From: an uncultured Pseudomonadota bacterium
GTDB taxonomy: Bacteria; UBA10199; JACPAL01; GCA-016699445
Direction of reading: 5' to 3'
DNA length: 64,000 bases
NCBI GenBank assembly: GCA_964555055.1
Contig: CAZKQW010000001.1
Location: 329,196 to 393,195 of the forward strand
Part shown: positions 38,826-50,371 of the stretch, in pieces
Layout of the letters: every line of letters starts with the position of its first letter
Numbering within the stretch: position 1 is the first letter of the stretch
Translations under genes and position numbers: made by a program
The notes under the pieces: model-generated
The model's database searches: none
Told to the model about the DNA's origin: nothing
The model's input: the letters and a program-made list of their open reading frames with translations, nothing else

Positions 38826-41447
38826 ATGACTGAAAACGCTCCGAATTTTGAACCCAAACCTTTTGGACGCTATGTCCTTCTCAACAAACTCGCTGTGGGC
38901 GGTATGGCGGAAATTTACAAGGCCAAAACCTACGGAGTTGACGGATTTGAGAAAGTCTTGGCGGTTAAGCGCATCCTCCCTCACTGTTCGGCGGATCGCG
39001 AGTTCATTAATATGCTGGTGGATGAGGCGAAACTCACTGTCCTCCTCTCCCATGCCAATATCGTCCAAGTGTATGACCTCGGAAAGGTCGGTGACGACTA
39101 CTTCATCTCCATGGAGTACATCTTCGGCACCAACCTCCGGGAATTCATGAACCGATTTCAGGAGAAGAAGAGCCGCATCCCGGACGAGATGACGGTCTAT
39201 ATCATCAGTGAGATGTGTAAGGGATTGGATTACGCCCACCGCAAGACCGATACCCAGGGGAAACCCTTAAACATCGTCCACCGCGACATCAGCCCCCAAA
39301 ACTTGCTTATTTCGTATGAAGGTGAAGTTAAAATCGTGGATTTCGGGATCGCCAAGGCTGCGATGAACGTGTCTCACACAATGGCGGGCATCCTAAAAGG
39401 CAAAGTCGCCTACATGTCGCCAGAACAGGCTTTAGGAAAACCCATCGATCACCGAACGGACATCTTTTCCGCTGGTCTCGTGCTTTACGAAATGTTGACA
39501 GGAGAAAAGCTTTTTACCGGCGAGACACAATTCGAAGTCTTGAACCAAATCCGCACCACCCGCGTCAACACTCTCATGCTTCCGGATACGATTCCAGGAC
39601 CTTTGAAAGCGATCATTGCGAAGTCTTTGGCTTATAATCCCAAAGACCGCTATCAGAGCGCCGGCGACTTCCAACTCGATCTTACGAAATTTCTCTATTC
39701 CTCCTATGTCGATTTTTCACCTCGAAACCTGGCCTCTTTGATGCATCAAATGTTCCAAGGAGACATGAAGAAAAAAGAGGCCCCGGTCGTCGTCGATGAA
39801 AAAACAAACTCCGCGATCATCAAACAGATCCAATCCTCCAATCCGGAGGATATCCTTGCGCACGCCAATACTTCGAAATCTCTCAGTGGCTTAGAAGTGA
39901 AGCCGGAACTCCCCACAGACCGCGTTCAAGCGCCTTCGACGACGCCTCATACGTCGACGGAGATCCGGATACACGACGATACGTTAATAAAAAAATTCGA
40001 GAACACGGCGCCTTCCATTACCGTGGGAAAGTCAGATAAAAAAACCAAGAAAAAACCACTGATCGCAGCCGTGGGTATACTCGTCGTCTTAGGGATCGCA
40101 GGCTTCTTCAGCTATAAATTCATCAAGAAACCGACCCCTCAAGCCCTGCCCATCCCACAACCGATGCCCCCACCCAACCAACCTCAAGTGGAAGTCAGCA
40201 GTATCGTGATCCACACAACGCCATCCGGCGCTAAAGTTTACCTGAACGGAAATCTCACCCAACTCGAAACGCCGGCGACTCTCGAGAAGTTAGAAACGGG
40301 ACGCGAGTACCAAATACGATTGGTCAAAGAAGGCTTTGAGGATTTCACAAAAGTCGTGCCGCTAACCAGCACAAGCGCCTTTAAAATCGAAACTACGCTT
40401 GTCGCCATAAAATCTCCAACGCCCCCACCTCCATCCCCGCCCTTAAAAGGAAGTCTTCAGATTACTTCATCCCCGACGGGGGCCAAAATCATCATCGATG
40501 GACACGAGATGGCTCAAACCACGCCAGCCGAAATACGAGAGCTGGAAATAGGGCGTAAATATTCTTTCAAGCTCCAACTTCCCAGTTATTCCGAATGGGC
40601 TTCCGAGGTTGAGGTTAAGTCTGCGGATCCGATGACAATTCAAGCTGCGCTCATACCCATTTCTCCACCCACGCCTCTGCCTCCGACTCCAACTCCCGTT
40701 CCACAACCCGTTCCGCCTGTGCTCGGATCGATCAACATCACTTCCAAACCAAGCGGCGCTAAAATCACCTTAAATGGAAAATACACCGGCAAGACGACCC
40801 CGGATACCTTGAAAGACCTGACCGCCGACCAAAAGGCCACGATTACCTTATCGAAAGAAGGTTATCAGGATTGGAGCAAGACGGTCACGGTCGTCGAAAA
40901 CCGCGCCTTGGACGTCTCGGGATTTTTGAAGGAAATTAAAGCACCGGAACCAACCGTTAAAACTCCAGACAAGCCAAAGGAGCCGACACCGCCACCCACG
41001 GAGCCTGAATCGCCCCAAATAAGCGGCACCGGCAGCATCGTGGTGAGTACCGAACCCTCAGGCATGGAAGTGTATGCGAACTCTGAATTAAAGGGACAAA
41101 CACCTCTCACCATATCGAATCTCCCCGCCGGAAACGTAAAGCTAGTTTTCCGTAAGGGAAACCTTCAACCCTTCGTGAAAAATGTAAAATTAGGTTCTGG
41201 AGAGAGTAAAAATTTAGGAACTATAGCCCTTTACGGGGAAGTAAAGATCGTCACCATGCCTCCGCGAGCGACGGTTATATGGAATGGAGTGGATGTGGGC
41301 GAGAAGAGCCCGGTGACTTTAAAAGGTTTCCCTCGGGATAAGGCTTATCCGATCAAGGTTATGTTGGATGGGTTCAAACCTTGGGAAAGCAATGTAAGTC
41401 TGGATAGTGATACTAAAAAATTAGACATCGAATTGGAGAAAGACTGA
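38826..41447 (+). CDS. Ser/Thr protein kinase with TM helix and five extracytoplasmic PEGA domains
   Basis: Hanks kinase motifs ('GGMAEIYKAK', 'VAVKRI', 'HRDISPQN', 'DFGIAK', 'YMSPEQ'). TM helix 'LIAAVGILVVLGIAGFF'. Five 'T.PSGAK(V/I)..NG...TP' PEGA repeats are separated by Pro-rich linkers. Confidence 0.88.
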   Translation: MTENAPNFEPKPFGRYVLLNKLAVGGMAEIYKAKTYGVDGFEKVLAVKRILPHCSADREFINMLVDEAKLTVLLSHANIVQVYDLGKVGDDYFISMEYIFGTNLREFMNRFQEKKSRIPDEMTVYIISEMCKGLDYAHRKTDTQGKPLNIVHRDISPQNLLISYEGEVKIVDFGIAKAAMNVSHTMAGILKGKVAYMSPEQALGKPIDHRTDIFSAGLVLYEMLTGEKLFTGETQFEVLNQIRTTRVNTLMLPDTIPGPLKAIIAKSLAYNPKDRYQSAGDFQLDLTKFLYSSYVDFSPRNLASLMHQMFQGDMKKKEAPVVVDEKTNSAIIKQIQSSNPEDILAHANTSKSLSGLEVKPELPTDRVQAPSTTPHTSTEIRIHDDTLIKKFENTAPSITVGKSDKKTKKKPLIAAVGILVVLGIAGFFSYKFIKKPTPQALPIPQPMPPPNQPQVEVSSIVIHTTPSGAKVYLNGNLTQLETPATLEKLETGREYQIRLVKEGFEDFTKVVPLTSTSAFKIETTLVAIKSPTPPPPSPPLKGSLQITSSPTGAKIIIDGHEMAQTTPAEIRELEIGRKYSFKLQLPSYSEWASEVEVKSADPMTIQAALIPISPPTPLPPTPTPVPQPVPPVLGSINITSKPSGAKITLNGKYTGKTTPDTLKDLTADQKATITLSKEGYQDWSKTVTVVENRALDVSGFLKEIKAPEPTVKTPDKPKEPTPPPTEPESPQISGTGSIVVSTEPSGMEVYANSELKGQTPLTISNLPAGNVKLVFRKGNLQPFVKNVKLGSGESKNLGTIALYGEVKIVTMPPRATVIWNGVDVGEKSPVTLKGFPRDKAYPIKVMLDGFKPWESNVSLDSDTKKLDIELEKD

Positions 41448-41454
41448 GGCCACC

Positions 41455-42858
41455 ATGGAAAACGCGATAAAAGAATTCGACACGCAGTTAATGAGAACGG
41501 AAGAGCAGAAAGACGTTGTCTTCCAGCGCAAATGTCAACTCGTCGTCCTAGACGGCGTTAAAAAGGGGGCTAAGATCGACCTGAACCGGCCCCTCATCCG
41601 AATCGGCAAGCGCGAGGACAATGATTTCGTCCTTGATGAGAAGACAGTCTCTCGAAACCACCTCGAAATCGTCCAGACCGAGGACCGATACCTGTTGAAG
41701 GACCTAGAAAGCACCAACGGCACCTTCATCAACGACATCCGCGTCAAGGAAGCTTATCTATCCCCCGGCGATATCGTTCGTCTGGGGAACATCAATGCCG
41801 AGTTCGTCGCATTCGATGAAAAAGTGCATATCGAGCCGTCGACCCAAAACCAATTTGGTCCCTTGATGGGTCGTTCGCGTAAAATGCGGCAGATCTTCAG
41901 CGTCCTGGAAAAAATCTCCCCCACGAATGCCACCGTCATGATCGAGGGCGAGACGGGGACGGGGAAGGATGTCGTCGCAAGGGCCATTCACGAAAATAGC
42001 TCCCGCAAGAATAAGCCCTTGATCGTCTTTGACTGCTCCGCCGTCGCCGAGAATCTCATCGAAAGCGAACTCTTCGGGCACATGAAGGGTTCGTTCACCG
42101 GAGCCGTCTCCACCCGCAAAGGAGCTTTCGAAGAGGCCAACGGAGGAACGATCTTCTTGGATGAAATCGGTGAGCTTTCCCTGGAACTCCAGCCAAAACT
42201 CTTGCGGGCCCTCGAACAGCGAGAGATTAAAAAAGTAGGTTCCAATGAGTCGATTCCTATCGATGTTCGCGTCATTTGCGCCACGAATAGAAATCTTAAG
42301 AAAGAAGTCTCCGAAAAAAGATTTCGCGAAGACCTCTATTATCGTCTCTCGGTCGTGAAAATTTATATCCCGCCTTTACGGGAGCGGCCCGAGGACATTT
42401 CGTTTCTGATCGAACATCTTTTGACACGCGGCAAATTCAACCTACAGCCGGATAATACATTGAAGGTCACCCGCGTGGAAGACGATGCCCTAAAAATGCT
42501 TTCGCGTTATCAGTGGCCTGGAAACGTCCGTGAACTCGTGAATATCCTCGAACGTATCGTCCCTATGGTGGACGGAAACTCAATCACAGGCCAGCAAGTA
42601 GGCTACGTCTTCCAAGAGCTCGAGCGCGAGGACGAGGAAGCCACCGAAAAAATGATGGTCGACATGGCCTTACCTTTCAAAGAAGCGAAGCAAAAGGTCG
42701 TGGAGCAATTCGAAAAGGAATATCTCTCGAGCTTGTTACGCCGTAACCATTACAACATCTCTAAAACCGCCCGGGAAGCCGGAGTAGATCGAAAGCATAT
42801 CCGGAATCTCCTGAAAAAATACGGGATTCTCGACGACAATCTGACGGACGACGAATAG
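41455..42858 (+). CDS. sigma-54-dependent transcriptional activator with N-terminal FHA domain
   Basis: FHA ('IRIGKREDNDFVLDEKTVSRNHLEI...STNGTF'). AAA+ ('GETGTGKD', 'GSFTGA' sigma-54 contact loop, 'GGTIFLDEI'). C-terminal HTH ('NISKTAREAGVDRKHI'). Confidence 0.9.
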   Translation: MENAIKEFDTQLMRTEEQKDVVFQRKCQLVVLDGVKKGAKIDLNRPLIRIGKREDNDFVLDEKTVSRNHLEIVQTEDRYLLKDLESTNGTFINDIRVKEAYLSPGDIVRLGNINAEFVAFDEKVHIEPSTQNQFGPLMGRSRKMRQIFSVLEKISPTNATVMIEGETGTGKDVVARAIHENSSRKNKPLIVFDCSAVAENLIESELFGHMKGSFTGAVSTRKGAFEEANGGTIFLDEIGELSLELQPKLLRALEQREIKKVGSNESIPIDVRVICATNRNLKKEVSEKRFREDLYYRLSVVKIYIPPLRERPEDISFLIEHLLTRGKFNLQPDNTLKVTRVEDDALKMLSRYQWPGNVRELVNILERIVPMVDGNSITGQQVGYVFQELEREDEEATEKMMVDMALPFKEAKQKVVEQFEKEYLSSLLRRNHYNISKTAREAGVDRKHIRNLLKKYGILDDNLTDDE

Positions 42859-50322: not shown

Positions 50323-50355
50323 AAAGAGACCTCCTCAGGGCCCTTTAGCTCATGA

Positions 50356-50371
50356 AGCAAAAAGAAGGCCA
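50356..50371 (-). promoter_or_regulatory. candidate sigma-54 (-24/-12) promoter upstream of the 372-aa ORF
   Basis: The minus strand reads TGGCCTTCTTTTTGCT, identical to the 48178-48193 motif at 14 of 16 positions. It lies about 35 nt upstream of the ATG at 50322. Confidence 0.6.

Follow-up and report, generated by a model that had tools for sequence, protein, structure and literature searches.

A candidate PEGA kinase, FHA activator and sigma-54 cascade with a sigma-28-like tier at a secretin-less type III secretion-like locus

[quoted passage not shown] Our results point to a two-tiered regulatory cascade for this locus: a membrane Ser/Thr kinase with five PEGA domains would signal to an adjacent FHA-domain sigma-54 activator, the activator would fire three sigma-54 promoters, and one of these would drive a FliA-like sigma factor with a promoter class of its own. 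We put the probability of the full cascade, including the steps from kinase to activator to promoter, at roughly 0.5. A sequence-only reading of the same DNA had proposed that the kinase, the activator and sigma-54 promoters control the T3SS; that interpretation is partly supported here, and is extended by the sigma-28-like tier.

Sigma-54 promoters before the T3SS-like operons

The T3SS-like operons are preceded on the minus strand by three sigma-54 -24/-12 elements, termed P1, P2 and P3. P1 (TGGCCCTCGTTTTGCT, 48178-48193) lies 79 nucleotides (nt) before the start, at 48099, of a gene encoding a protein of 458 amino acids (aa); P2 (TGGCCTTCTTTTTGCT, 50356-50371) lies 34 nt before the start of a 372-aa gene at 50322; and P3 (TGGCATGTTGACTGCA, 59916-59931) lies 27 nt before the start, at 59889, of the gene for the FliA-like sigma factor. 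This sigma gene (59053-59889) is the first of an operon that runs through sctL-N-O-P-Q-R-S-T to 50476. In all three elements the GG and GC doublets stand 10 nt apart within TGGCAC-N5-TTGCW, and 5-6 of 8 further consensus positions agree. The sequence-only reading had described three intergenic motifs, correctly oriented, before T3SS operons. The orientation holds throughout, the T3SS genes being on the minus strand, and the placement holds for P1 and P2; the third motif precedes the sigma gene that heads an operon, and no structural operon directly.

The presence of such motifs is uninformative by itself, as that reading had cautioned from an expectation of about two: TGGC-N7-YTGC occurs four times in the window, against 2.96 occurrences expected by shuffling. 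Their placement, however, is distinctive. Three of the four matches lie in co-oriented intergenic DNA, which makes up 2.84% of strand-positions (binomial P = 9e-5), and the same test confined to intergenic DNA of the T3SS locus (0.86%) gives P = 2.5e-6; the fourth match is antisense, inside sucD. Enrichment upstream of T3SS genes, the lack of which had been named as the result that would speak against the cascade, was thus found in the window. Under a looser score (GG and GC required, at least 5/8), the window holds 15 sites, 12 of which are within genes or mis-oriented, and P1-P3 are the only co-oriented intergenic sites among the 15 (P = 0.008).

The elements are also retained in related loci, which we designate by L numbers. 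The closest genome found in a scan of a genome collection with SctT is CP064976.1 (L001), a 2.7 Mb metagenome-assembled genome named 'Deltaproteobacteria bacterium' whose SctT is 85% identical. P1, P2 and P3 are all at orthologous places in L001, and the -24/-12 elements appear as identity islands in pairwise alignments of the window with this locus: P1 (L001 15437-15452) is such an island in an intergenic alignment of 79% identity, with extra open reading frames (ORFs) preceding it in L001, and P2 (L001 11627-11642) has kept its place despite an insertion of about 0.7 kb and two genes between sctT and P2. The sigma factor has orthologs of 62-95% identity, which we followed into four more distant genomes (L008-L011), and TGGCAY-N5-MTGCA precedes the orthologous sigma gene in L001/L012, L008, L009, L010 and L011, at no more than 55 nt from the annotated sigma-gene start in the four distant genomes. 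When six P3 loci, each from a different genome, are aligned, identity over the intergenic DNA is 44%; TGGCA...TGCA forms the conserved block and holds most of the invariant columns. Similarly, sites scoring 6-8/8 stand before T3SS-side genes in L002 (TGGCATGGGTCTTGCA and TGGCATGAAACTTGCT), L003 (TGGCACCTCCCTTGCA), L004 (TGGCACGTGCCTTGCT) and L013 (TGGCATAAGTGTTGCA), the last of them right after sctT, in the same place as P2.

Could P1-P3 be chance matches in T-rich intergenic DNA, the operons using ordinary sigma-70 promoters? The window count, which does not exceed the shuffle expectation, and the scores of just 5-6/8 for P1 and P2 would fit such an explanation. It is strongly disfavoured, and in our view very improbable, given the placement of the motifs, their retention across genomes whose intergenic DNA is otherwise unalignable and in which mainly the -24/-12 bases are invariant, and the higher scores of the relatives' equivalents. 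Moreover, no sigma-70-like match was found on the minus strand of the three promoter intergenic regions, and a scan for sigma-70 promoters and terminators gave no enrichment and no clear terminators between operons. Together, these results establish P1-P3 as sigma-54 promoters as far as sequence allows, a conclusion that we hold with high confidence.

Candidate upstream activator sites accompany these promoters. For P1, the alignment of the window with L001 contains a conserved island, GTCCCACCCCCGTGGCATCAAAACCCCATTCTGATAAT (48289-48326, minus strand), about 110-130 nt upstream of the -24 element and followed by an A/T-rich tract. For P3, the candidates on the minus strand (59976-60022) are GACCCCA at 60016-60022, inside the 3' end of a 117-aa gene, and AAACTCCCACTTGTAAATCC at 59976-59995. 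Of 12 non-redundant sigma-54 promoters, 9 have ACCCC or GGGGT at -85 to -145 relative to the -24 element, whereas the frequency in control windows is 10% (P = 1.6e-7 for a motif defined post hoc). The element often reads RACCCCA and sometimes forms a GGGGT-N5-11-ACCCC dyad, and it is separated from the promoter by an A/T-rich tract, the usual enhancer geometry. RACCCCA is not enriched over the window as a whole (20 occurrences, about 16 expected). An enumeration of 8-mers with one mismatch was dominated by A/T-rich words, and AGACCCCA was marginal, being present in 11 of 14 sequences when shuffles reached up to 10; the positional test, although post hoc, is the stronger of the two.

Two features of the P1 and P2 transcription units were seen alongside. 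The leader behind P1 (48100-48177, minus strand; about 65 nt) contains blocks shared with L001, CCTTTGGAT and ATCTAAAGGTTA.ACG, beyond the ribosome-binding site, and has no Rfam match. The first genes behind P1 and P2 (starts 48099 and 50322) and their counterparts in L001 (11677 and 15541) and L006 (16339) begin with M-x-L-W-G, in the variants MNLWGY (after P1), MELWGA, MEMWGS and MELWGF (compare MIDLYGF), an N-terminus that they share and that may serve as an export signal. That the two first genes in the window, behind P1 and P2, are paralogs was considered and rejected: BLASTP gave no similarity beyond this N-terminus.

A FliA-like sigma factor and a sigma-28-like promoter class

The sigma factor encoded behind P3 (59053-59889, minus strand) matches Sigma70_r2 and Sigma70_r4 in Pfam. 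Its best NCBIfam match is TIGR02479 (FliA_WhiG), at 140.7 bits; because this score is below the curated cutoff of 189.6, we call the protein FliA-like and not FliA. In the remaining T3SS intergenic regions of all the loci we found a second recurring element, GCAACT-N16-NCGATAA, whose -10 half is the classical sigma-28 GCCGATAA. A search for CAACT-N14-16-NCGATA over 296.6 kb returned 18 matches, where 1.47 were expected and none of 100 shuffles gave more than 4, and 16 of the 18 are intergenic within T3SS loci, co-oriented and mostly 20-60 nt before callable starts.

Two such elements lie in the window, both on the minus strand. The first, (G)CAACT-N16-ACGATAT at 60771-60797, is 23 nt before the gene for a 131-aa protein (60352-60747); it is kept in L001 (499-525) and L012 (9084-9110) and has equivalents in L008 (8906) and L009 (9019). 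The second, (G)CAACT-N16-ACGATAA at 62973-62999, precedes a 190-aa gene, a TPR gene and sctJ; it is kept in L012 (6906-6932), with equivalents in L008 (6750), L009 (6929) and L011 (6857). These data indicate that the sigma-28-like promoter class is quite probably real, and we infer that the FliA-like sigma factor is the cognate reader of GCAACT-N16-NCGATAA.

Promoters of this class also precede substrate-like operons in L002, L006 and L011, and the equivalent genes elsewhere carry sigma-54 sites. For example, the L006 gene whose product begins MELWGF has a sigma-28-like promoter, and the first gene behind P1 in the window is the one beginning MNLWGY. From one relative to another, orthologous substrate operons appear to exchange one promoter class for the other. 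L006 also contains TGGCACCGGGCTTGAT (within 16340-16874, minus strand), located upstream of the sigma-28-like promoter that precedes the MELWGF gene, a sigma-54-like sequence in which GA replaces the GC of the -12 element and which may be a relic of a promoter-class swap.

The kinase, the activator and their possible links to the promoters

At the end of the T3SS-like locus lie two genes on the plus strand. One (38826-41447) encodes an 873-aa membrane Hanks-type Ser/Thr kinase, with Pfam matches to Pkinase (PF00069, 2.4e-38) and to five PEGA stretches (6.9e-64). Its layout comprises an N-terminal cytoplasmic kinase domain, one hydrophobic segment at about residues 412-431, Pro-rich linkers and five extracytoplasmic PEGA domains, and its translation contains all of the catalytic motifs (the VAVK lysine, HRD, DFG and SPE). 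The other (41455-42858) encodes a 467-aa FHA-AAA+-HTH sigma-54 activator with matches to FHA (2.3e-19), Sigma54_activat (PF00158, 1.1e-71), AAA_lid_14 and HTH_8 (3.6e-6). Both assignments agree with what the sequence-only reading had proposed at these positions: a five-PEGA Ser/Thr kinase and, just downstream, an FHA-domain sigma-54 activator. The gap between the kinase stop and the activator start is 7 nt here and 13-117 nt in six relatives with gene calls, always co-directional, and the two genes are probably co-transcribed.

The activator has intact Walker A and B motifs (GETGTGKD and DEIGEL), and its sigma-54 contact loop reads GSFTGA, orthologs alternating between GSFTGA and GAFTGA. Its orthologs fall into more than 120 clusters (65-95% identity). 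In an ortholog comparison the HTH is almost invariant, and the FHA pocket residues G51, S66, H69 and N88 are invariant. The closest solved relatives of the FHA domain are those of mycobacterial Rv1747, GarA and EmbR, which have proven kinase partners, such as PknF for Rv1747 and PknH for EmbR (PMC3138270, PMC8636726).

The neighbourhood of this pair is conserved. The activator gene converges on the P1 operon, with 4 nt between the stop codons, and the order kinase, activator, then convergent TPR-X-TPR and T3SS genes recurs in every related locus that has the activator gene (L002-L007 from gene calls and Pfam, L013 and L014 from tblastn), with activator identities of 67-82%. The TPR-X-TPR arrangement of the P1 operon is kept beside the activator in all of these loci. 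A kinase ortholog lies upstream of the activator in L002 and L004-L007 (Pfam) and in L013 and L014 (tblastn); in L003 its position is occupied by a 920-aa gene with no Pfam match on record. L001 stops at the TPR gene adjoining the activator and is informative for the T3SS side only. Of 80 loci from a metagenome scan with the activator, 77 encode generic activators whose identity of about 40-47% is confined to the AAA+ domain; the useful loci were L013 and L014 alone. The flank beyond proC-yggT differs between L003 and L004 on the one hand and L002, L006 and L007 on the other, and the order of kinase, activator and T3SS genes is kept.

Beside the kinase gene, relatives carry right upstream a small gene (134-214 aa, no Pfam match) that overlaps the kinase start in some loci (L002 6884-7327, L003 6366-7010, L004 6550-7170, L005 6717-7349, L006 7140-7544 and L007 6899-7357), and a Zn_ribbon_8 gene precedes some of these. 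The window lacks the small gene, and yggT and the kinase gene are 113 nt apart. Sigma-54 autoregulation of the kinase-activator operon was considered and rejected as a conserved feature: a perfect consensus, TGGCACGCCGATTGCT, is found only in L006 (6819-6834, plus strand), within yggT and 716 nt upstream of the kinase start, where it may represent lineage-specific autoregulation; L002 has a weaker, partial site in yggT, and the other loci have none. The sensor pair is thus probably expressed independently of its own regulon.

A sigma-54 promoter opens only with the help of an AAA+ activator. The FHA-AAA+-HTH protein from the locus end is the best candidate for this role, and we lean towards the view that it fires the sigma-54 promoters. 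In the cascade that we propose, the kinase would sense an envelope signal through its five PEGA domains and autophosphorylate; the activator's FHA domain would dock on phosphothreonine, as in the mycobacterial PknH-EmbR precedent, and assembly of the AAA+ ring would thereby be released or promoted. The activator would bind the C-rich element (RACCCCA, sometimes a GGGGT/ACCCC dyad) about 110-145 nt upstream, across the A/T-rich tract. In a first tier, P3 would drive the FliA-like sigma factor together with the export-apparatus and ATPase operon, and P2 and P1 would drive family-less proteins, probably substrates, with TPR chaperone-like partners. In a second tier, the FliA-like sigma factor would read GCAACT-N16-NCGATAA before sctJ and the small-protein operons, and before substrate-like operons in relatives. 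Further targets of the kinase may be two proteins of the locus, one FHA-PEGA and ring-like and the other 2xFHA, such that one signal could couple expression and assembly.

These latter proteins are known largely from relatives. In the window, only the TPR-PEGA C-terminal part of an approximately 700-aa FHA-PEGA-TPR-PEGA protein is present (63345-64000, minus strand; Pfam TPR and PEGA), cut by the window end. Full-length orthologs with an N-terminal FHA domain are encoded in L008, L010, L011 and L012, and an FHA-PEGA protein in L009. Divergent from the FHA-PEGA gene, L008, L010, L011 and L012 encode a 2xFHA protein (about 350 aa), behind which come genes for proteins without a family match (regions L008 637-6287, L010 1-6414, L011 1971-6555 and L012 1269-6567). 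These FHA proteins are as plausible as kinase clients as the activator is, and the occurrence of PEGA domains in both the kinase and the ring-like protein suggests a shared envelope location.

The links from kinase to FHA domain and from activator to promoter are suggested by conserved adjacency and by analogy, and several observations weigh against them. The organism is known only from metagenomes. P1 and P2 depart from TGGCAC at -22/-21, and the upstream motif, which was defined after inspection, has inconsistent dyad spacing and is absent at P2. The canonical phosphothreonine-contacting Arg of FHA domains aligns with K52 of the activator (Lys in 11 of 12 orthologs, with R/K53 next to it); because of this Lys, phosphothreonine binding by the activator, judged from its residues, is plausible and not assured. 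In every locus in which this flank was examined, the housekeeping genes proC-yggT are kept next to the kinase; lineage-wide collinearity could therefore explain the conserved order, and adjacency alone is weak evidence. The activator gene converges on the T3SS genes instead of diverging from them. Finally, L005 has a second FHA-FHA-AAA+ activator 9 kb away, and other activators therefore exist in these genomes.

The last three points would be expected if the promoters are real and the adjacent FHA activator is not theirs, the kinase-activator pair controlling something else and being a neighbour by clade gene order; the lack of a conserved sigma-54 site before the kinase operon, which leaves the pair not visibly in the regulon, fits this explanation as well. 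We consider it unlikely, if a serious competitor, because the adjacency recurs in every related locus with the activator gene although the flank past proC-yggT differs, FHA and PEGA domains recur in the ring-like protein of the T3SS itself, a thematic link between kinase and machine, and the near-invariant HTH is paralleled by an upstream element whose position is conserved among the T3SS promoters. Less likely still is that the kinase acts mainly post-translationally, through the FHA proteins of the locus, with the activator's FHA domain serving another input or being a minor client. FHA-bearing T3SS proteins do occur in five relatives and partly in the window, the chlamydial kinase PknD phosphorylates the FHA-containing SctD homolog CdsD (PMC2765968), PpkA-Fha1 in type VI secretion offers a further precedent, and the Lys at the canonical Arg position would suit a lesser role for the activator's FHA domain. 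Against this stands the tight, always co-directional pairing of the kinase and activator genes; moreover, such phosphorylation would complement the proposed cascade rather than exclude it.

Related systems and the gene content of the window

Sigma-54 control of T3SS genes is known from HrpR/S-HrpL in plant pathogens and from CtcC in Chlamydia (PMC7482065, PMC8657755, PMC12316311). In the HrpR/HrpS-sigma-54-HrpL cascade of Pseudomonas syringae and Erwinia, as in the one proposed here, an AAA+ activator acts on a sigma-54 promoter, which drives an in-cluster sigma gene serving a dedicated promoter class on other operons of the T3SS. The likeness is in logic only: HrpL is an extracytoplasmic function (ECF) sigma factor that reads hrp boxes, whereas the present locus has a FliA/WhiG-like group-3 sigma factor and GCAACT-N16-CGATAA; HrpR and HrpS have no sensory N-terminal domain, whereas the activator here carries an FHA domain and would be partnered with a Ser/Thr kinase. 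Sigma-54 would here also drive structural and substrate operons directly, and the machine is secretin-less and flagellum-like and comes from an uncultured lineage. In Chlamydia, late genes related to the T3SS are under sigma-54 as well as sigma-28 (PMC7482065), the CtcB/CtcC-sigma-54 regulon including T3SS effectors, and the pair of the Ser/Thr kinase PknD and CdsD (PMC2765968) is a further likeness; however, CtcC (of CtcB/CtcC) is a two-component response regulator, and the chlamydial T3SS has a secretin and a needle and is encoded at scattered loci.

The mycobacterial pairs PknH-EmbR, PknF-Rv1747 and PknB/G-GarA similarly comprise a membrane Hanks kinase encoded beside an FHA effector, and the transcription factor EmbR uses its FHA domain to dock on the kinase once this is phosphorylated (PMC8636726, PMC3138270). 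EmbR is a SARP-type sigma-70 activator, whereas the protein described here is an AAA+ sigma-54 activator with Lys in place of the FHA Arg. As for the machine, the 'Myxo' secretin-less non-flagellar T3SS of Myxococcales (PMC3459982) likewise has no secretin in or near the locus, an export apparatus, an ATPase and a SctJ ring, and deltaproteobacteria-like hosts. Compared by gene content, the present locus differs in keeping FliG_C-, FliM- and FliO-like genes, FliG being reported as absent from the Myxo systems.

Hierarchies in which sigma-54 is followed by sigma-28 are textbook knowledge for flagella. In those governed by FlrA/FlrC in Vibrio, FlgR in Campylobacter and Helicobacter, and FlbD in Caulobacter, sigma-54 serves early or middle genes and FliA serves late genes with a GCCGATAA-type -10 element. 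Here, by contrast, there are no rod, hook or motor genes, a SctJ-type lipoprotein ring and a YscO-like protein are encoded, the activator would be FHA-gated and is not a response regulator, and the -35 element is GCAACT and not TAAA. One tentative, rather doubtful extension is that the ancestral flagellar logic of sigma-54 followed by a FliA-like sigma factor has been kept, with a PEGA kinase replacing the two-component input and signalling through FHA domains to the activator and to the FHA-PEGA ring-like and 2xFHA proteins (assembly or gating), the shared PEGA domains putting the kinase and the basal body at one and the same structure of the envelope.

In Myxococcus xanthus, enhancer-binding proteins with an FHA domain, reportedly described by Jelsbak, Givskov and Kaiser in 2005 (a paper that PMC6971385 cites) in connection with fruiting-body development, are said to share the FHA/sigma-54 AAA+/HTH architecture, with Ser/Thr kinases as the presumed input instead of histidine kinases. 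We know of no T3SS target or adjacent PEGA kinase described for them. The link to a kinase has long been assumed for these activators and rarely pinned down; if the cascade proposed here is true, its activator would be one of few FHA-gated sigma-54 activators tied to a specific kinase and regulon. In the literature searched, we found no paper that connects a T3SS with either an FHA activator or a PEGA kinase, and the locus is a new combination of known parts: an FHA-gated activator with a PEGA kinase, sigma-54 promoters, a secretin-less flagellum-like T3SS and, encoded in the locus, a FliA-like sigma factor that has a promoter class to itself. For early-branching secretin-less T3SS-like machines there is, to our knowledge, no known function and no known regulation. 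The present analysis supplies a wiring diagram with two mapped promoter classes, a candidate activator site, a dedicated sigma factor and a candidate envelope-sensing kinase, and these promoters and regulators are handles for switching the system on heterologously and for finding its substrates. A hierarchy of sigma-54 and sigma-28 type on a non-flagellar T3SS also bears on the departure of the injectisome lineage from the flagellum.

Read on the minus strand from the window end, the truncated FHA-PEGA-TPR-PEGA gene is followed by genes for a 103-aa protein, a 190-aa protein, a TPR protein and a SctJ-type lipoprotein (sctJ, 60830-61894; the unit of 190-aa, TPR and sctJ genes runs from 62876 to 60830), and then by those for the 131-aa (60352-60747) and 117-aa proteins. 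Behind the sigma gene come genes for a 178-aa protein, FliG_C-like, SctL/FliH, the SctN ATPase, YscO-like and FliK/SctP-like proteins, and further on FliM-like, FliN/SctQ, FliO-like, SctR, SctS and SctT (50476-51306). The P2 operon (50322 to 48346) encodes the 372-aa protein and a 281-aa protein, neither with a family match. The P1 operon (48099 to 42863) encodes proteins of 458 and 535 aa, a TPR protein, a 285-aa protein and a second TPR protein; the 458-aa and 535-aa proteins have no family match, both TPR proteins are of about 200 aa, and the products of this operon are candidate secreted substrates with chaperone-like partners.

Pfam and NCBIfam thus identify the core components SctJ, L, N, O, Q, R, S and T. 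FHIPEP (SctV) was found in relatives only (L008 and L011), upstream of the stretch that the window covers, and SctU was seen neither in the window locus nor in the relatives' loci. No match to the Secretin family and no rod, hook or motor genes were found in the window locus or within 10 kb on either side in relatives. The genes are arranged in flagellar style (fliG-like, H, I, J, K-like, M, N, O, P, Q, R).

Small mobile or toxin-antitoxin-type genes (PIN, BrnT, AbiEii, ParE, 23S_rRNA_IVP and AAA_14/DUF4143) recur after sctT or inside sctRST in relatives (L001 10860-11530; L003 15506-16004 and 17171-17981; L007 17239-18417; L009 19181-20422; L010 19309-20846), and none is there in the window. 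In L005 (14800-18110) and L012 (11369-14237 and 17593-19412), the gene calls show several T3SS genes (sctN, sctR, sctT and the fliG-like one) as split or absent, which may reflect pseudogenes or long-read assembly frameshifts.

Rfam and tRNA scans of the window gave no matches. Its remaining genes are housekeeping: panBC, smpB, mdh, sdhA, sucD, mscL, ligA, a PrkA-DUF444-SpoVR operon, mlaDEF, proC and yggT. The PrkA-DUF444-SpoVR operon (29063-33725, minus strand) lies 5 kb from the kinase gene, and the same synteny is found in L002, L006 and L007. The sole flagellar structural gene in the window apart from the T3SS locus encodes a 239-aa flagellin-type protein (5951-6670, minus strand; Flagellin_N 8.6e-18, Flagellin_C 2.2e-7), divergent from mdh and 36 kb from the T3SS locus. 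Its upstream DNA contains GCAACTT and no good CGATAA -10 element, and its product may form a filament of the T3SS-like machine or be one of its substrates.

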